40,218 bases of DNA from sequence record KC109329.1, one strand, 5' to 3'. Positions 2,386 to 36,804 of this stretch are shown here, piece by piece. The position numbers and the translations under genes were made by a program. This stretch comes from Escherichia phage CLB_P1. A model generated the notes under the pieces. It was not told the origin of the DNA and searched no databases. It was given only the letters and a program-made list of their open reading frames with translations. Position 1 is the stretch's first letter. Each line of letters begins with the position of its first letter.

Positions 2386-2408
2386 ACTTAACTATCACTA
2401 TAGGACTC
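2386..2408 (+). promoter_or_regulatory. Phage RNAP promoter copy immediately upstream of the RNA polymerase gene (ACTTAACTATCACTATA/GGACTC)
   Basis: Matches the genome-wide 17-bp promoter core at -17..-1; the initiating region GGACTC differs from the GGGAGA of the strongest copy. Confidence 0.55.
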
Positions 2409-2477: not shown

Positions 2478-5159
2478 ATGAGCGTCATCTCTATTGACAA
2501 ACACGACTTCTCTGATGTGTCGAACGCCATTGAGCCGTTTAACCTGCTGGCTGACCACTACGGGCAAGACCTTGCAGTCAAACAGCTTCAGCTTGAGCAT
2601 GAGGCATACACTGAAGGCGAGCGACGTTTCATCAAGAACCTTGAGCGCCAGACTGAGCGCGGAGAACTGGCAGACAATCAGGTCGCCAAGCCTTTGATGC
2701 AGACTCTGGTCCCTAAGATTGCGCAAGCCGTCAAGGAGTGGCATGAAGGTCAAGACGGGAAGCTGTCAACCTCTCGTCCGAGCGTAGCGTTCACCATGTT
2801 GAGCACTGAAGAGAAGGCCGTCAAGGACCGCTCTCTGCGCATCTCCTGTGAGTCTGCTGCGGTTATCATACTGAAGGTCATCCTCTCCAAGCTGGTCAAG
2901 CCTGAAGGGATACCGATTACACCTATGGCCTCAGCGATAGGTCGCACACTTGAGGATGAAATCCGATTCGGTCGCATTCGTGACAAGGAGAAGGAGCACT
3001 TCAAGAAGGTGATAGCTGATAACCTGAACAAGAGAGCCGGGGCATCATACAAGAAAGCCTACATGCAAGCGGTCGAGACATCCATGCTGGAGCAGGGTCA
3101 ACTGGAAGATGCGTGGGGAACTTGGAGTCCGACAGAAGCGGTACACGTTGGCATCAAGATGCTTGAGATTGTCATACAGTCCACACAACTGGTCGAGCTT
3201 AAGCGTTACGGTGCTGGCAATGCAGCTGCTGACGTTGAGATGGTCCACCTGTCAGACTTCTGGGTCAAGAAGATGACACAACGTGGGTTCAGCCTTGCGG
3301 GTATTGCGCCAGTCTACCAGCCTTGCGTCGTTCCACCTAAACCGTGGACTGGTGTCGTAGGAGGTGGGTACTGGGCCAAAGGTCGCAGACCACTACCACT
3401 GATTCGCTTAGGGTCTAAGTCTGCGGTGGCGCGTTACGAAGACGTGTACATGCCTGAAGTCTATGACGCTGTGAATATCATCCAGAATACACCTTGGAAA
3501 GTTAACAAGAAGGTACTGGAAGTGGTGAACACGGTCGAGAAGCTGAACAACACGCCTATTGACGACATCCCTCAGATGGAGCCACTGAAGCCTGAAGACT
3601 ATGCGGGTGAGACTGAAGAGGAACTCAAGGCATGGAAGAAGGCTGCTGCTGGTATCTACCGCCGAGAGAAGGCCCGGCAGTCACGCAGATTGTCACTGAG
3701 CTTTATCGTTAACCAAGCGAACAAGTTTTCTCAGTTCAAGGCCATCTGGTTCCCGTACAACATGGACTGGCGCGGTCGCGTCTACGCTGTGCCGATGTTC
3801 AACCCTCAGGGTAACGACATGCAAAAGGGTCTACTGACTCTGGCAGTCGGCAAGCCTATTGGTGCCGATGGATTTAAATGGCTGAAGGTACACGGTGCAA
3901 ACTGTGCGGGTGTCGATAAAGTCACCTTCGAGGAGCGCATCAAGTGGGTGGAAGACAACCACGACAACATCATGGCTGCTGCTAAGGCACCGATGGACAG
4001 CATTGAGTGGTGGGGCAAGTTAGACTCTCCGTTCTGCTTCCTTGCGTTCTGCTTCGAGTATGCTGGCGTAATGCACCACGGATTGTCTTACTCCTGCTCG
4101 CTTCCGATAGCGTTCGATGGGTCCTGCTCTGGGATTCAGCACTTCAGCGCGATGCTTCGTGACCACATCGGTGGACATGCAGTAAACCTGACGCCTTCCG
4201 GTAAGGTCCAAGACATCTACCGCATCGTGTCTGACCGCGTTGAGGAGGAGCTTAAAGTCCTGCTGGTTAACGGCACGGACAACGAGATGGTAACTCACGA
4301 GGACAAGAAAACTGGTGAGATTACCGAACGTCTCAAGCTGGGGACACGAGAGCTGGCCCGGCAGTGGCTGACTTACGGTATGTCACGCAAGGTTACTAAG
4401 CGCTCAGTCATGACTCTGGCCTACGGGTCGAAAGAGTACGGCTTCGCAGACCAAGTTTATGAGGACATCGTGATGCCAGCGATTGACTCAGGGTCTGGCG
4501 CTATGTTCACCGAGCCAAGCCAAGCGTCTCGCTTCATGGCTAAGATGATTTGGGAAGCTGTGAGTGTGACCGTAGTTGCTGCGGTTGACGCGATGAAGTG
4601 GCTTCAAGGTGCTGCCAAGCTGCTGGCTGCTGAAGTGAAGGACAAGAAGACTGGTGAAATCCTGAAGCCTTGCCTTCCGGTACACTGGGTCACGCCTGAT
4701 GGTTTCCCGGTATGGCAGGAATACCGCAAGAAGGATACCACTCGTCTGAACCTGATGTTCTTAGGGTCCTTCAACCTTCAACCTACGGTCAACAAAGGTA
4801 CGAAGAAAGAGCTGGATAAGCACAAGCAGGAGTCAGGCATTAGCCCAAACTTCGTCCACTCACAAGATGGTAGCCACCTACGCAAGACTGTAGTCCACAC
4901 GCATCGCAAGTATGGCGTGATGTCATTCGCAGTGATTCACGATAGCTTCGGGACCATCCCGGCTGACGCTGAATATCTGTTCCGTGGTGTCCGTGAGACG
5001 ATGGTTGAGACATACCGCGACAACGATGTGCTGCTTGACTTCTACGAGCAGTTTGAATGCCAGCTTCATGAGAGCCAGCGCGACAAGTTGCCTGAGCTAC
5101 CGAAGAAAGGTAAACTGAATATCGAAGACATCTTGTCTTCAGATTTTGCATTCGCTTAA
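2478..5159 (+). CDS. Single-subunit DNA-directed RNA polymerase (T7 gene 1 homolog), 893 aa
   Basis: Full-length alignment with T7 RNAP from recall (DFS...PFN.LADHYG, PCVVPPKPWTG, WFPYNMDWRGRVYAV, HGANCAGVDKV, SPFCFLAFCFEYAGV, IHDSFGT, FAFA C-terminus). Confidence 0.97.
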   Translation: MSVISIDKHDFSDVSNAIEPFNLLADHYGQDLAVKQLQLEHEAYTEGERRFIKNLERQTERGELADNQVAKPLMQTLVPKIAQAVKEWHEGQDGKLSTSRPSVAFTMLSTEEKAVKDRSLRISCESAAVIILKVILSKLVKPEGIPITPMASAIGRTLEDEIRFGRIRDKEKEHFKKVIADNLNKRAGASYKKAYMQAVETSMLEQGQLEDAWGTWSPTEAVHVGIKMLEIVIQSTQLVELKRYGAGNAAADVEMVHLSDFWVKKMTQRGFSLAGIAPVYQPCVVPPKPWTGVVGGGYWAKGRRPLPLIRLGSKSAVARYEDVYMPEVYDAVNIIQNTPWKVNKKVLEVVNTVEKLNNTPIDDIPQMEPLKPEDYAGETEEELKAWKKAAAGIYRREKARQSRRLSLSFIVNQANKFSQFKAIWFPYNMDWRGRVYAVPMFNPQGNDMQKGLLTLAVGKPIGADGFKWLKVHGANCAGVDKVTFEERIKWVEDNHDNIMAAAKAPMDSIEWWGKLDSPFCFLAFCFEYAGVMHHGLSYSCSLPIAFDGSCSGIQHFSAMLRDHIGGHAVNLTPSGKVQDIYRIVSDRVEEELKVLLVNGTDNEMVTHEDKKTGEITERLKLGTRELARQWLTYGMSRKVTKRSVMTLAYGSKEYGFADQVYEDIVMPAIDSGSGAMFTEPSQASRFMAKMIWEAVSVTVVAAVDAMKWLQGAAKLLAAEVKDKKTGEILKPCLPVHWVTPDGFPVWQEYRKKDTTRLNLMFLGSFNLQPTVNKGTKKELDKHKQESGISPNFVHSQDGSHLRKTVVHTHRKYGVMSFAVIHDSFGTIPADAEYLFRGVRETMVETYRDNDVLLDFYEQFECQLHESQRDKLPELPKKGKLNIEDILSSDFAFA

Positions 5160-5461: not shown

Positions 5462-5484
5462 CCTAAACTATCACTATAGGATTA
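5462..5484 (+). promoter_or_regulatory. Phage RNAP promoter (CCTAAACTATCACTATA/GGATTA)
   Basis: Consensus 17-mer read directly; position corresponds to T7 phi1.1. Confidence 0.65.
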
Positions 5485-5526
5485 GACTCAAGGTCATGAC
5501 TCAAAGTCGTGGCCTTCATGATTAAC
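5483..5526 (+). promoter_or_regulatory. Conserved stem-loop, candidate RNase III processing site (R1.1-like)
   Basis: AAGGTCAT...GTGGCCTT stem that pairs only as RNA (two G-U wobbles); same element recurs at 12568 and 36254 with different loops. Confidence 0.4.
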
Positions 5527-5557
5527 CCTAAATAAACACTACTGGAGATTTAACCGT

Positions 5558-5741: not shown

Positions 5742-6005
5742 ATGGGCCGACTTTATAGTGGCAACCTCAACGCTTTCAAAGCAGCGTGTAGCAGGCTTTA
5801 TCAGTTAGACTTCGCTGTTATATCTCAGGAGTTTCAAGACAATGTGTCTCGCCAAGAGTGTATGAAACTCAGGGTGGAGGACCGAGCTGGCAACATCTTC
5901 GCGCTTGAGACCTTCGCACACTACGATGAAGACGTGCTGTATAATACTGCAACCGACTACCTCAACGGTCTCGCTGACCAACTCGATACATGGAGCAAAG
6001 CATAA
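5742..6005 (+). CDS. gp1.2-like protein (T7 dGTPase inhibitor homolog)
   Basis: MGRLYSGNL.AFKAA...LY.LDFAVI... aligns with the T7 gp1.2 N-terminus. Confidence 0.8.
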   Translation: MGRLYSGNLNAFKAACSRLYQLDFAVISQEFQDNVSRQECMKLRVEDRAGNIFALETFAHYDEDVLYNTATDYLNGLADQLDTWSKA

Positions 6006-7057
6006 TGACAACTATTAAAACCAACCCACACCGCGCTGTAGATTACTCTGAGTCTGGCGTTAAGAAGGCACTGGAAGCAGCCGGGTCTCTGGAAGCTGAA
6101 GTGAAGTACGATGGTGTCCGGTTGAATCTTCCGGTATTCCCTACTGGTGAGACTCAATGGTTGAGCCGTGAGTCTAAACATCTCCCAGCACTTGAGTGGC
6201 TGTCAGTCCTTACCAACATCGACAACATCGTTGAGGACCAGCAAAAAGCCAGCGACTGGCGATGGTTCCTGAAGCAGGCTGGCTACGAAGGCACTGGCCT
6301 GATGATTGACGGTGAGGTCATGGTAAAGGGAGTGGACTTCAATACGTCTTCAGGTCTCATCCGAACGAAGTGGGTAAATCAAAAGAACTTTGAGTTTTCC
6401 ACTGGTGAGCACTGGGGTAAGAGCTGGAAGAAAGAGAATCTACCGTTCTGTCTTGACAAGAAGTACATCAAGGTAGTCGTCTACGGTATCGTGGACCTTA
6501 ACGTCATCCTCGACCCCAAGGCCGAAGGTCCTATCCATAGCGTCACCCGCCTGAAGGCCGAAGCTATCGTCCCTCTCCTCCAGAAATACTTCCCGGAAAT
6601 CGAATGGGTTCTTTCGGAGTCACACACGGTCTTTGACCTTGAGTCGCTCCAATCCCTGTACGAAGAGAAGCGAGCAGAAGGTCACGAAGGACTGGTGGTG
6701 AAAGACCCACTGGGCAAGTGGAAGCGTGGCAAGAAGTCAGGCATGTGGAAAATGAAGCCGAGCGAAGAGGCAGACGGCCATGTTGTTCGTCCGGTATGGG
6801 GAACGGAAGGTCTAGCCAACGAAGGTCTGGTAATTGGCTTTGACGTTATGCTTGAGAACGGGATGGAGGTCTCCGCAACTAACATTAGTCGCGCCCTTAT
6901 GTCCGAGTTCACCGAGAACGTCAAGTCGGACCCAGATTACTACAAAGGGTGGGCCTGTCAGATTACCTACATGGAGGAGACACCAGATGGAAGTTTGCGA
7001 CATCCGTCATTCGACCAATGGCGAGGTACTGAGGACAATCCTACAGTCAAGATTTAA
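6005..7057 (+). CDS. ATP-dependent DNA ligase (T7 gene 1.3 homolog)
   Basis: IKTNP, adenylation motif KYDGVR, EGHEGLVVKDP, KRGKKSGMWKMKP, GWACQITYMEETPDGSLRHPSF; start taken at the ATG overlapping the upstream stop (TAATG), not the track's 5990. Confidence 0.93.
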   Translation: MTTIKTNPHRAVDYSESGVKKALEAAGSLEAEVKYDGVRLNLPVFPTGETQWLSRESKHLPALEWLSVLTNIDNIVEDQQKASDWRWFLKQAGYEGTGLMIDGEVMVKGVDFNTSSGLIRTKWVNQKNFEFSTGEHWGKSWKKENLPFCLDKKYIKVVVYGIVDLNVILDPKAEGPIHSVTRLKAEAIVPLLQKYFPEIEWVLSESHTVFDLESLQSLYEEKRAEGHEGLVVKDPLGKWKRGKKSGMWKMKPSEEADGHVVRPVWGTEGLANEGLVIGFDVMLENGMEVSATNISRALMSEFTENVKSDPDYYKGWACQITYMEETPDGSLRHPSFDQWRGTEDNPTVKI

Positions 7058-10372: not shown

Positions 10373-10588
10373 ATGATTAAACTTATTGAATTTCTTGGTC
10401 GTCTGGTGGTGCGTGGTTATCGTCGTGCTGCGGTACTGGAGCGAAAGGTAGAAAAGAAGACTGCTGACGGTGCGGCTGATGCTGCTGCTCTGGCTGACAA
10501 GCTGACCATCGCGTCACTGGAAGCGGGCATGAAGGCACGTCAAGCTGACACCAAAGCTGACCAGTTGGCCCAGTTCTTCAAAGCCTAA
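10373..10588 (+). CDS. Hypothetical protein (71 aa)
   Basis: RBS AAGGAG before ATG; Ala/Lys-rich predicted helical product. Confidence 0.55.
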   Translation: MIKLIEFLGRLVVRGYRRAAVLERKVEKKTADGAADAAALADKLTIASLEAGMKARQADTKADQLAQFFKA

Positions 10589-10606
10589 ACTATCACCTTA
10601 GGGATG
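10584..10606 (+). promoter_or_regulatory. Degenerate phage promoter-like site (CCTAAACTATCACCTTA/GGGATG)
   Basis: Upstream half matches consensus exactly; -4/-3 are CT instead of TA. Confidence 0.35.
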
Positions 10607-10653
10607 GGACCATGAGTCCTGTCCCTTTGTTCGCATTTGTGATTAAGGAGTGA

Positions 10654-12401: not shown

Positions 12402-12566
12402 GTGTTAAAGAAACTTAAAGCTCGATACCATCGGTTCATGTACAAATGGTGGAGCGAAGAAGCAACCTGCCTGTCGAACATTCTGGGAGACCAAAGGTTC
12501 GACTCTAAGGCATGGAAGAAAGCTAACCGGAAGTTTATGTATCACTTCTTGCGTACAGACTTCTAG
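12402..12566 (+). CDS. Small hypothetical protein (GTG start, 54 aa)
   Basis: GGAGGA with 8-nt spacing before GTG at 12402; an in-frame ATG at 12438 is an alternative start. Confidence 0.3.
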   Translation: MLKKLKARYHRFMYKWWSEEATCLSNILGDQRFDSKAWKKANRKFMYHFLRTDF

Positions 12567-12567
12567 G

Positions 12568-12614
12568 TCTAGACTCAAGGTCATTCACATTGAGTGGCCT
12601 TTATGATTAGACTA
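12568..12614 (+). promoter_or_regulatory. Conserved stem-loop, candidate RNase III processing site (R4.7-like)
   Basis: AGACTCAAGGTCAT-loop-GTGGCCTTTATGATTA; same stem as at 5483 and 36254 with a different loop. Confidence 0.4.
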
Positions 12615-12629
12615 AACGGAGGATTAACC

Positions 12630-13031
12630 ATGTTTGATTGCATTGAGTGGACCGGGTGTCGAGATAGTTTCGGCTACGGTATGCGAAAGGTCAACGGGAA
12701 GGTCCGTAGACTGCATCTGATAGCCTTCGAGGAGGCGAATGGTCCGATACCAGAGGGAATGGTCGTGAGGCACAAATGCGACAACCCAGCGTGCTACAAT
12801 CCAGAACACTTGGAGCTGGGGACAAGGGCTGAGAACAATCACGATAGAGACATTAGAGGTCGAACCGCTAAAGGCGTGCGACATGGAAGCTCTAAGCTTA
12901 CACCTGAAATAGTACAAGAGGCCAAGGTGCTTTACGCAGGAGGTGGCTGGACTCACCGCTCCTTAGGTAAGAAGTATGGAGTGGGTCACCGCACACTGGC
13001 TAGAGCAATTGGAGGAGAAACATGGACTTAA
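12630..13031 (+). CDS. HNH homing endonuclease (free-standing, between primase/helicase and DNA polymerase)
   Basis: NGPIPEGMVVRHKCDNPACYNPEHLELGTRAENNHD motif; GGAGGA RBS 7 nt before ATG at 12630. Confidence 0.8.
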   Translation: MFDCIEWTGCRDSFGYGMRKVNGKVRRLHLIAFEEANGPIPEGMVVRHKCDNPACYNPEHLELGTRAENNHDRDIRGRTAKGVRHGSSKLTPEIVQEAKVLYAGGGWTHRSLGKKYGVGHRTLARAIGGETWT

Positions 13032-18750: not shown

Positions 18751-20319
18751 ATGGCTGAACGTGAAGGGTTCGCTGCTGAAGGAGCCAAAGCGGTCTATGA
18801 CCGACTGAAGAACGGTAGACAGCCATATGAGACACGCGCTCAGAACTGTGCTGCTGTCACTATCCCGTCACTGTTTCCTAAGGAGTCAGACAACTCATCT
18901 ACTGAGTATACCACTCCGTGGCAATCCGTAGGTGCTCGCTGCTTGAACAACTTGGCTGCAAAGCTGATGTTGGCGTTATTCCCTCAGTCACCGTGGATGA
19001 GACTGACAGTCTCCGAATATGAGGCAAAGACCTTGAGTCAGGACTCAGAGGCTGCTGCTCGTGTTGACGAAGGACTGGCTATGGTCGAGCGTGTATTGAT
19101 GGCCTACATGGAGACTAACAGTTTCCGTGTCCCATTGTTCGAGGCCCTGAAGCAGCTTATCGTCTCAGGTAACTGCCTGCTCTACATTCCTCCTCCAGAA
19201 CAAGGAACCTACAGTCCGATGCGGATGTACCGATTAGTGTCTTACGTTGTTCAACGTGATGCGTTCGGTAACATCTTGCAGATTGTGACTCTCGACAAGG
19301 TAGCGTTTAGTGCTCTACCGGAAGACGTGAAGTCTCAACTCAACGCAGACGACTATGAGCCTGACACCGAGCTTGAAGTGTATACGCACATCTACCGTCA
19401 AGACGACGAGTATCTACGCTACGAGGAAGTGGAAGGAATTGAGGTAGCAGGGACCGATGGTTCCTACCCGCTGACTGCATGTCCGTACATCCCGGTACGA
19501 ATGGTTCGACTGGATGGTGAAGACTACGGTCGTTCTTACTGCGAGGAGTATCTGGGAGACCTGAACTCTCTGGAGACGATTACAGAAGCTATCACCAAAA
19601 TGGCTAAGGTAGCCTCCAAGGTGGTGGGCCTCGTTAACCCGAACGGCATCACGCAACCTCGACGTCTGAACAAGGCGGCTACAGGTGAGTTCGTGGCTGG
19701 TCGCGTTGAGGACATCAACTTCCTGCAACTGACGAAAGGTCAGGACTTTACGATTGCTAAGTCGGTGGCTGACGCTATCGAGCAACGTCTAGGCTGGGCC
19801 TTCCTTCTCAATAGTGCTGTTCAGCGTAATGCTGAGCGAGTCACTGCCGAAGAGATTCGTTATGTTGCTGGCGAACTGGAGGCGACCTTAGGTGGCGTGT
19901 ACTCAGTACAGTCACAAGAGCTTCAGTTACCTATCGTCCGTGTGCTGATGAACCAGCTTCAGTCTGCTGGCATGATTCCTGACCTTCCGAAAGAAGCGGT
20001 AGAGCCTACTGTCTCCACTGGTCTGGAAGCGTTAGGTCGTGGTCAAGACTTAGAGAAGCTGACTCAGGCAGTCAACATGATGACCGGGCTACAGCCTCTG
20101 CAACAGGACCCAGACATTAACTTGCCGACCCTGAAGCTGCGACTGCTGAATGCCTTAGGTATTGACACTGCTGGGTTGCTGCTGACTCAGGACGAGAAGT
20201 TGCAACGTATGGCTGAACAATCCGCTCAAGGAGCTGTGGTCAACGGTGCGTCTGCTGCTGGTGCTAACATGGGAGCTACTGTTGGACAAGTAGCTGGTGA
20301 GGACGTGGCTCAAGCCTAA
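18751..20319 (+). CDS. Portal (head-to-tail connector) protein, T7 gene 8 homolog
   Basis: 522 aa; position and length match T7 gp8; RBS AAGGAGG upstream. Confidence 0.93.
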   Translation: MAEREGFAAEGAKAVYDRLKNGRQPYETRAQNCAAVTIPSLFPKESDNSSTEYTTPWQSVGARCLNNLAAKLMLALFPQSPWMRLTVSEYEAKTLSQDSEAAARVDEGLAMVERVLMAYMETNSFRVPLFEALKQLIVSGNCLLYIPPPEQGTYSPMRMYRLVSYVVQRDAFGNILQIVTLDKVAFSALPEDVKSQLNADDYEPDTELEVYTHIYRQDDEYLRYEEVEGIEVAGTDGSYPLTACPYIPVRMVRLDGEDYGRSYCEEYLGDLNSLETITEAITKMAKVASKVVGLVNPNGITQPRRLNKAATGEFVAGRVEDINFLQLTKGQDFTIAKSVADAIEQRLGWAFLLNSAVQRNAERVTAEEIRYVAGELEATLGGVYSVQSQELQLPIVRVLMNQLQSAGMIPDLPKEAVEPTVSTGLEALGRGQDLEKLTQAVNMMTGLQPLQQDPDINLPTLKLRLLNALGIDTAGLLLTQDEKLQRMAEQSAQGAVVNGASAAGANMGATVGQVAGEDVAQA

Positions 20320-20434: not shown

Positions 20435-21322
20435 ATGTCTCAATCAGTTTATGCCGAGTTCGGCGTTAGCTCTAATGCAATCACTGGTTCCGTTGAGGAC
20501 CTGAACGAACACCAAAAGTCTATGCTTGAACAGGACGTAGCTGTTCGTGATGGTGACGACGCTATTACCTTCAAGCAACTGGAAGCCGAAAACGAAGAGG
20601 CTACCGAAGAAGACGAGAACGTCGAAGAGGCTGAAGGTGAAGAAGAAGACCACGAGTCCGATGACGAAGAGTCTGAGACCGATGGTGAGCAGCCTGAGTT
20701 CATTGAACTGGGTGATGCACCGAAAGAGCTGACCGAAAGTGTCACCGCTCTGGATGAAAACGAAGCTGCATTCGACGACATGGTGTCTTCTGCTGTGGAA
20801 GCTGGCAAGGTCACTGCTGATGAAATTACCGCTATCAAGGCTGAATACGCCAAGGACGGTAAGCTGTCTGACGCATCCTACGCTAAGTTGCAGGAAGCAG
20901 GTTACACCAAGCGTTTCGTAGATTCGTTTGTCCGTGGTCAGGAAGCTCTGGCTGAACAGTATGCTGCTGGAGTGGTTCGCTACGCTGGTGGAGCTGAACA
21001 GTTTAACCGCATTCTGTCTCACCTTGAGTCAACCGACCCGTCAACTCGTGAGGCACTGGAAGCTGCTATCGTTCGTAAGGACATTGCGACTACCAAAGCT
21101 CTGCTGAATCTGGCTGGCAAGACTCTTGGTAAAGCTGTAGGCGTTAAACCTCAGCGTACCATCACCAATCAGGCTAAACCTGTGGTAGCACCTAAGGCTC
21201 CTAAGACCGAAGCATTCAGCTCTAAGGCTGACATGATTAAGGCTATGAGTGACCCGCGATACCTGCGTGACGCTAAGTACACGATGGAAGTGCGCGCTAA
21301 GGTAGCTGCATCGAGCCTGTAG
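20435..21322 (+). CDS. Capsid assembly (scaffolding) protein, T7 gene 9 homolog
   Basis: 295-aa highly acidic protein with an EEDE-rich region between portal and capsid genes. Confidence 0.88.
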   Translation: MSQSVYAEFGVSSNAITGSVEDLNEHQKSMLEQDVAVRDGDDAITFKQLEAENEEATEEDENVEEAEGEEEDHESDDEESETDGEQPEFIELGDAPKELTESVTALDENEAAFDDMVSSAVEAGKVTADEITAIKAEYAKDGKLSDASYAKLQEAGYTKRFVDSFVRGQEALAEQYAAGVVRYAGGAEQFNRILSHLESTDPSTREALEAAIVRKDIATTKALLNLAGKTLGKAVGVKPQRTITNQAKPVVAPKAPKTEAFSSKADMIKAMSDPRYLRDAKYTMEVRAKVAASSL

Positions 21323-21323
21323 G

Positions 21324-21346
21324 ACTAAACTATCACTATAGGGAGA
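21324..21346 (+). promoter_or_regulatory. Phage RNAP promoter, best consensus copy (ACTAAACTATCACTATA/GGGAGA), phi10 equivalent
   Basis: Full core plus GGGAGA initiating sequence, followed by an AU-rich leader and strong RBS before the capsid gene. Confidence 0.75.
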
Positions 21347-21448
21347 CCAAGAGACAGACTCAAGGTTTCCCTATTACTTCAGTCCATACGGATTGGGCGT
21401 ACAGTAAGTAATAAACTTTATCTTTCAATTGAATAGGAGAATTATCAT

Positions 21449-25981: not shown

Positions 25982-26005
25982 CTTATTGATTGGCCTATAG
26001 ATTCA

Positions 26006-26028
26006 CCTTAACTATCACTATAGGGACT
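26006..26028 (+). promoter_or_regulatory. Phage RNAP promoter (CCTTAACTATCACTATA/GGGACT)
   Basis: Consensus core; phi13 position. Confidence 0.65.
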
Positions 26029-26067
26029 ATAGGCCCTTTAAGTTATAATACTTTAAGAGGAGACTTT

Positions 26068-36241: not shown

Positions 36242-36253
36242 ATCTCTTAAGTG

Positions 36254-36298
36254 TTAGACTCAAGGTCATTACTGTATGTAGTGGCCTTTATGGTTAAC
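36254..36298 (+). promoter_or_regulatory. Conserved stem-loop, candidate RNase III processing site (R18.5-like)
   Basis: AGACTCAAGGTCAT-loop-GTGGCCTTTATGGTTA; third copy of the motif. Confidence 0.4.
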
Positions 36299-36351
36299 AC
36301 TAACTAGTGGAGGAGACTCTACGTGAAATCTGATAAACCGGGAGGGCACCT

Positions 36352-36804
36352 ATGCTCGAATTTCTAAAGAGAGCGGCTCCGTGGTTACTCGCAGCAGTGA
36401 TGTTTGCTGGGGGCTACCACACCGCTAACAATAAGTGGGAGGCTAAGGTCAATGCAGAATACACCTCGAATCTTAAGGCATCGGAGGATACAAGGCTTGC
36501 TGTCCAAGCTGAAGTCAACAAAGTGTCCAAACGGTTTCAGGACGAAATGTCCTCGCTGGAAGGCAGCACTGATAGGATTATTGCTGACCTTCAGTCTGAC
36601 AATAAGCGGTTGCGCATCCGAGTCAAACCTACGAGTGGAACCACGCAAAGTGACGGTCGATGCGTCATTGATGGTTACGCCGAACTTGACGAACGAGATG
36701 CTAAACGTCTTATCGCCATCGGACTGAAAGGGGACTCTTGGATTAAAGCACTACAGGATACTATTCGAAAACTTCAACAAGACAAGGAGAAAGACAATGG
36801 GTAA
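36352..36804 (+). CDS. Rz-like i-spanin (T7 gene 18.5 homolog)
   Basis: MLEFL, EGSTDRII.DL.SDNKRLR.RVK, DGRAELD.RDAKR, GD.WI.ALQDTIR.LQ as in T7 gp18.5. Confidence 0.88.
   Translation: MLEFLKRAAPWLLAAVMFAGGYHTANNKWEAKVNAEYTSNLKASEDTRLAVQAEVNKVSKRFQDEMSSLEGSTDRIIADLQSDNKRLRIRVKPTSGTTQSDGRCVIDGYAELDERDAKRLIAIGLKGDSWIKALQDTIRKLQQDKEKDNG
36452..36727 (+). CDS. Rz1-like o-spanin lipoprotein embedded in the +1 frame of the Rz-like gene (gene 18.7 homolog)
   Basis: PRWK.ALIGL.L....TISGCASES (lipobox ISGC) and SLMV.PNLT.EMLNV as in T7 gp18.7; start ATG at 36452 inferred. Confidence 0.65.
   Translation: MQNTPRILRHRRIQGLLSKLKSTKCPNGFRTKCPRWKAALIGLLLTFSLTISGCASESNLRVEPRKVTVDASLMVTPNLTNEMLNVLSPSD

Follow-up and report, generated by a model that had tools for sequence, protein, structure and literature searches.

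What is the hairpin that the RNA of Escherichia phage CLB_P1 can form at positions 5478-5529, ahead of gene 1.1, and why does it recur twice more in the same genome? The whole stretch of DNA analyzed here (KC109329.1; 40,218 nucleotides) is referred to as the window, and its initial annotation had described a recurrent stem-loop at 5483-5526, 12568-12614 and 36254-36298 and had compared the three places with the T7 RNase III sites R1.1, R4.7 and R18.5. We estimate a probability of about 90% that the three hairpins, together with a diverged fourth one at 1609-1674, are RNase III processing signals in polycistronic mRNAs and are homologous to T7 R1.1, R4.7 and R18.5. This reading is supported by the near-identity to mapped T7 sites, by a common fold, by synteny with T7 and T3, by the recovery of T3 sites and by covariation.

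At all three places the motif reads as it had been described, and it occurs well above chance. The sequence GACTCAAGGTCAT is found exactly three times in the window, always on the + strand, and when up to two mismatches are allowed there are 12 matches versus 1.3 expected from shuffles. Its partner GTGGCCTTYATGRTTA is exact at the same three places and, including a copy with three mismatches at 1645, reaches 4 matches versus a shuffle expectation of 0.7. Spacers of 11, 9 and 11 nt separate the two core 8-mers in sites 1, 2 and 3, respectively. Most of this spacer is an extension of the stem in which the bases differ between the copies yet are complementary (GACU/AGUC, UCA/UGA, UAC/GUA), and the actual apical loops left after this pairing measure 3-5 nt. 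The two U.G pairs reported for the core AAGGUCAU/GUGGCCUU stem are present. The heptamer CTCAAGG alone has 11 occurrences on the + strand and 12 on the - strand, where about 2.5 per strand would be expected (calculated by hand for a 7-mer in 40 kb); this enrichment of about 4-5-fold on both strands is a general feature of the word and is unrelated to the hairpins.

RNA folding, which had been proposed as a check on the motif, gave a stable common structure for the + strand at all three sites, and the centroid folds define an element that is larger than first described, in which an asymmetric 4/5 internal loop separates a lower stem of 7-8 bp from an upper one of 11-12 bp. The internal loop is formed by ACUC on its 4-nt side and by YAUGR (CAUGA, UAUGA or UAUGG) on its 5-nt side, and the distal part of the lower stem differs and co-varies between the three copies. 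Site 1, the R1.1 homologue (5478-5529, +), pairs 5478-5485 with 5522-5529 in the lower stem and 5490-5501 with 5505-5516 in the upper stem, which is closed by the apical loop CAA, and its internal loop places ACUC (5486-5489) opposite CAUGA (5517-5521); the fold has an energy of -18.8 kcal/mol (z -3.83) and the covariance model described below scores it at 66.3 bits. In site 2, the R4.7 homologue (12566-12613, +), the lower stem joins 12566-12572 with 12607-12613 and the upper stem 12577-12587 with 12591-12601, the apical loop is CAU and the internal loop consists of ACUC (12573-12576) and UAUGA (12602-12606), with values of -19.8 kcal/mol, z -4.62 and 67.7 bits. The most stable of the three is site 3, the R18.5 homologue (36250-36301, +; -23.1 kcal/mol, z -5.64, 69.2 bits), with a lower stem of 36250-36257 and 36294-36301, an upper stem of 36262-36272 and 36278-36288, the apical loop UGUAU, and ACUC (36258-36261) facing UAUGG (36289-36293). 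None of 200 shuffles folded as well as the + strand RNA of the sites. For the - strand, energies of -15.7, -10.4 and -12.2 kcal/mol (sites 1-3; z -1.1 to -2.3) were obtained. The initial annotation had stated that the stem pairs only in + strand RNA; the direction is right, but the word "only" was too strong because the - strand still forms a weaker hairpin at these energies, the two U.G pairs weakening the opposite-strand structure without abolishing it. A search with Rfam 15 at gathering thresholds gave no family match anywhere in the window.

A 1-kb segment around site 1 matches Kayfunavirus CLBP1 (OZ035730.1, a record without annotation) with 100% identity, and K1F-group coliphages show 93-96% identity to the window over this test segment; we therefore regard the window as the genome of a T7 relative (Studiervirinae). 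All its genes lie on the + strand and follow the T7 order, running from an ocr-like 0.3 gene through RNA polymerase (2478-5159), dGTPase inhibitor, ligase, primase/helicase, DNA polymerase and small terminase to an Rz-like spanin. When the flanking genes were named via PHROGs and then compared with the gene and site maps of T7 and T3, the gene context given earlier for the three sites (before 1.1, after 4 and before 18.5) was borne out. Upstream of site 1 are the RNA polymerase gene and an ORF of 71 aa, and downstream of it are an ORF of 59 aa and the gene of the dGTPase inhibitor (1.2). Site 2 has primase/helicase and an ORF of 54 aa on its 5' side, with genes for an HNH endonuclease and for DNA polymerase on its 3' side, and site 3 separates the small terminase gene (18) from that of the Rz-like spanin (18.5). 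All three are thus intergenic on the transcribed strand and syntenic with R1.1, R4.7 and R18.5 of T7 and T3. Between site 3 and the start of the spanin gene at 36352 (36309-36352, +) there are two Shine-Dalgarno-like runs, GGAGGAG followed by GTG near 36323 and GGGAGGG before the ATG, an arrangement suggesting that a short ORF may precede 18.5 and overlap its start.

In the T7 genome, both blocks of the motif occur together at 863/880, 1438/1458, 5858/5877, 13864/13882, 18512/18553 and 36827/36846, positions which we take to be R0.3, R0.5, R1.1, R4.7, R6.5 and R18.5, and the block at 5858-5891 lies between gene 1 and gene 1.1. The T7 coordinates of Dunn and Studier (1983) are reportedly 890, 1468, 5887, 13892, 18563 and 36856, and all six of them land on the same base of the motif in the T7 register. 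Since annotation of RNase III sites is absent from the T7 RefSeq and V01146 records, the T7 site names used here are based on the motif positions, on the published nucleotide 5887 and on these coordinates. The R1.1 cleavage position is given as T7 nt 5887 in PMC8708148, and this nucleotide is the U of CCUUUAU/G in the shared block.

An alignment of the window sites with those of T7 displays invariant CTCAAGG and G.G..CTT.A.G blocks, and site 2 has 31 core nucleotides (14 + 17) in common with T7 R1.1. The 10 upper-stem pairs that adjoin the internal loop are identical between site 2 and T7 R1.1, as are the first 8 of them in sites 1 and 3; according to PMC8708148 and PMC1540722, it is in this part of the helix that the proximal and distal boxes, which set reactivity, are located. 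T7 R1.1, R4.7 and R18.5 and T3 R1.1, when folded by the same method, also consist of a lower stem, a 4/5 loop and an upper stem, in agreement with the description of R1.1 RNA as a 60-nt molecule with an asymmetric 4 nt/5 nt internal loop in which E. coli RNase III cuts a single bond to yield fragments of 47 and 13 nt (PMC6121014; PMC4858673). The model scores of the window sites (66-69 bits) are in the same range as those of the T7 sites. The signals of T7 and of the window therefore share the ACUCAAGGUC...GUGGCCUUYAUGRUU blocks, the two-stem hairpin with its 4/5 asymmetric loop and with U.G pairs that favour pairing of the + strand, and an intergenic location adjoining the same genes. In contrast, the lower-stem sequences and the apical loops differ, with compensatory changes, and the window contains three strong sites and one diverged site of this type whereas T7 has six. 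Unlike T7, the window has no consensus-type site around the promoter before gene 6.5 and none before gene 0.3, and site 2 precedes the HNH endonuclease gene at the place where T7 has gene 4.7.

T3 provided a reference with annotated sites, as its RefSeq record (NC_003298) contains ten stem-loops labelled 'RNase III recognition site'. A covariance model built only from the sites of the window and of T7 recovered R0.5, R0.3, R4.7, R6.5, R18.5 and R1.1 of T3 at 48-66 bits and, more weakly, R1.3 and R1, and at E < 1 it found nothing in T3 beyond these eight annotated sites. As in the window, where the promoter at 5466-5480 runs into site 1, the T3 promoter phi1.1 overlaps the start of R1.1. T3 differs from the window in the CUUAAGG and UUUGUGAUU variants present in its R1.1 and in the number of sites, ten being annotated in T3 as against three strong and one diverged in the window.

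A family set was assembled by a pattern scan of IMG/VR, followed by application of the model over 83 sources, which gave 102 sites, 90 of them distinct. In the 90 distinct sites 94.8% of the cells are paired, versus 29-50% when the partners are slid, although the alignment was seeded with a pattern requiring the conserved blocks and was fitted to the model, so that column conservation and part of the pairing percentage arise by construction and only the variable stem columns provide independent support. Compensatory changes are seen in 18 of the 19 pairs, including all nine pairs of the lower stem, and none of 500 shuffles reached the observed values for pairing and covariation. Among the same distinct sites G.U cells number 263 and A.C cells 31, and the same helices would be 81% paired on the opposite strand versus 95% on the + strand. 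The large excess of G.U over A.C, together with the covariation, indicates that the + strand RNA is the functional molecule.

These data bear directly on the possibility that the repeats act at the level of DNA, for instance by binding proteins, by serving replication or as hot spots of recombination or homing, the RNA fold being incidental. In favour of such a role, the blocks are conserved beyond the apparent need of RNase III, an enzyme for which PMC8708148 describes no strong positive consensus, and the primary replication origin of T3 is situated near gene 1.05/1.1. However, frequent switches from G-C to G-U preserve pairing in + strand RNA only, the lower-stem pairs change in a compensatory manner with the sequence itself left free, and every family match in the window, T7 and T3 at E < 1e-3 is on the gene-carrying strand. 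We consider a DNA-level explanation exceedingly improbable and retain the interpretation as RNase III sites.

A different label has been attached to a close relative of site 1. In the record of phage vB_EcoA_ASO2B (MZ726794.1), the homologue of site 1 (836-872) is annotated as 'rho-independent terminator; discovered using WebGeSTer'. In K1F records annotation of RNase III sites is absent, and a search of the literature on K1F and RNase III, the K1F genome paper (Scholl and Merril, 2005) lying outside its scope, returned unrelated reviews only. Besides the ASO2B label, a moderately U-rich stretch after the stem (UUUAUGAUU) would fit with the hairpins being intrinsic transcription terminators. 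A terminator scan, however, finds no terminator-like site at any of the three loci because an adequate T-run after the stem is lacking, and the U residues directly following GGCC are paired with the AA of the upper stem. Also, the lower stem and the internal loop, features that terminators do not need, are conserved and covarying, the homologous elements bear the label of RNase III recognition sites in the T3 record, and the sole annotated terminators of T7 and T3 (TE, which follows gene 1.3, and Tphi, which follows gene 10) are located elsewhere. Promoter distribution is informative as well. Between 10588 and 17498 no other consensus promoter was found, with a single match at 12834 that has three mismatches, and none other was found between 33293 and 39458. 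It follows that transcription has to pass through site 2 to reach DNA polymerase and through site 3 to reach genes 18.5/19, and efficient termination there would cut off essential genes. Given the missing T-run and the read-through required downstream of sites 2 and 3, we rejected the terminator reading, to which we assign a very low probability, and the ASO2B terminator is most likely a misannotated R1.1-type RNase III hairpin.

The promoters were located by a word search for phage RNA polymerase promoters, which gave 12 matches in the window versus 0.8 expected, and the aligned promoters have cctaAACTATCACTATAGG in common. One promoter core, AACTATCACTATAGG, is at 5466-5480 (+), and the homologous position in ASO2B is annotated as a K1F promoter consensus match. 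By analogy with T7 promoters, transcription from this promoter would start at G5479; transcripts would then begin within the lower stem of site 1 and contain almost the whole hairpin. Directly after site 1, at 5521-5548 (+), the sequence TTAACCCTAAATAAACACTACTGGAG resembles the upstream promoter (TTAACCTAAACTATCACTATAGGA) at about 13 of 18 positions after one indel, and the 3' strand of the lower stem of site 1 overlaps it. Judged from this resemblance, TTAACCCTAAATAAACACTACTGGAG may be a decayed second promoter. In T7, R1.1 is located between phi1.1A and phi1.1B, and site 1 is likewise placed between a promoter and the promoter-like TTAACCCTAAATAAACACTACTGGAG. A further perfect core AACTATCACTATAGG is present at 2390-2404 (+), 74 nt upstream of the RNA polymerase gene (2478-5159), and could allow the polymerase to transcribe its own gene in a positive feedback. 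In the records of T7 and T3, the features before the RNA polymerase gene are host promoters and R1 only, whereas the window has a phage-type promoter and no R1-like hairpin at this place; the region before gene 1 gave no convincing alignment with R1 of T7 or T3.

If the three elements are processed like their T7 counterparts, transcription of the + strand would let each of them fold into an interrupted helix of about 20 bp, to which RNase III of the host would bind. The enzyme would cut one strand only, on the 3' side of the internal loop (CCUUYAU/GRUUA), because the asymmetric 4/5 loop interrupts the duplex at the target. Transfer of the register from T7 nt 5887 predicts cuts at U5519/G5520 in site 1, at U12604/G12605 in site 2, 25 nt before the ATG at 12630, and at U36291/G36292 in site 3 (all +). 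The upstream mRNA would carry the complete upper hairpin at its 3' terminus, an arrangement that in T7 gives protection from 3' exonucleases, and the downstream mRNA would begin 25-60 nt before the start codon, with the ribosome-binding site free. Cleavage, its exact position and its effects on mRNA stability and translation are thus inferred from homology with T7, in which both the early and the late polycistronic precursors undergo such processing, RNase III being helpful but not essential for T7 (PMC4858673). The stems of rRNA operons and other dsRNA targets resemble the window sites in offering about two helical turns of double-stranded RNA to the same enzyme (PMC1540722). Unlike T7-type signals, other RNase III substrates are generally cut in both strands with a 2-nt stagger and have no sequence consensus (PMC8708148). 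With an internal loop of the T7 type, only one phosphodiester is cut and a hairpin remains at the 3' end (PMC1540722).

Might the hairpins serve mainly without being cut, as stabilisers of 3' or 5' ends or as translational or protein-binding operators, with RNase III cleavage absent or secondary? Bulge motifs that permit binding of RNase III and block cleavage are known (PMC1540722), which gives this idea some ground. A second point in its favour comes from the early region, where none of the ORFs of at least 40 aa (452-2380, +) matches a protein kinase family, the largest ORF encoding the 162-aa ocr-like protein. For this reason the phage seems, as judged from its ORFs, to be without a homologue of the T7 0.7 kinase, an enzyme that phosphorylates and stimulates RNase III. 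Against the idea stand the upper-stem pairs shared with T7 R1.1 (10 in site 2, 8 in sites 1 and 3) and an internal loop of T7 size and sequence in all three sites. We judge a mainly cleavage-independent role improbable. It is a separate matter whether the hairpins, in addition to their role in RNase III cleavage, could have another function that is sequence-specific. The ACUCAAGGUC and GGCCUUYAUGRUU blocks, which represent the internal loop and the stem next to it, vary little between paralogous sites or between genera (T7, T3 and the K1F group), and such conservation is far tighter than RNase III reportedly requires. A second function is therefore conceivable, albeit unlikely in our opinion, and recognition by a phage or host protein or homogenisation by gene conversion between the sites are possibilities for it.

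The diverged fourth site, GAGGUCAUC...GGUGGCCUC (1609-1674, +), which is absent from the initial annotation, was matched by the model at 29.2 bits (E 2.3e-5). The ocr-like 0.3 gene and a pair of small ORFs precede it, a 55-aa ORF (1686-1853) follows, and the sides of its loop are ACGA and AAAGA. Its AGGTC and GTGGCCT blocks are invariant and common to R1, R1.3 and R0.5 of T7 and T3, its fold is only marginally better than those of shuffles (z -1.59), and conservation of the region extends to 190 phage records.

The initial annotation had also pointed to shorter elements, GACTCAAGG, following two promoters. These 9-mers do exist, at 2404-2412 and 21357-21365, the latter 15 nt downstream of the end of the promoter core that starts at 21328, which is at 21342 and not at 21341, but an RNase III-like nature of the elements was not supported. 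Both were rejected as sites: a 3' GUGGCCUU partner is missing, the covariance model gave no match to them even at E 10, and their folds, with z values of -0.35/-0.61 and -1.78, were not better than those of shuffles. Three further copies of the 9-mer are present on the - strand, all within genes (6637-6645, 19031-19039 and 21022-21030).

Two other hairpins were noted in the window. At 25992-26035 (+), an inverted repeat GGCCUAUAG...CUAUAGGCC encloses the promoter at 26010-26024 and folds at -16.8 kcal/mol (z -2.5). The same layout is found in T3, where the annotated RNase III site R13 encloses phi13, and by this analogy the repeat may be an R13-type site without the consensus motif. At 10600-10626 (+), a perfect 11-bp hairpin GGGAUGGGAC...GUCCUGUCCC (-17.5 kcal/mol, z -3.3) starts with the first bases transcribed from the promoter-like site (10588-10602) ahead of the primase/helicase gene, a position resembling that of the T3 stem-loop annotated as RNase III site R3.8.

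The element studied here is a classic RNase III processing signal of the T7 type, which is already well known, and for this reason it adds no new biology. Its practical value lies in annotation, as the probable ends of the mature phage mRNAs become defined once the three or four sites are marked. The useful outputs are a corrected annotation, the diverged fourth site at 1609-1674 and the predicted cut positions, and a label such as the terminator in the ASO2B record would mislead transcription modelling or the engineering of therapeutic phages directed against the K1 capsule.
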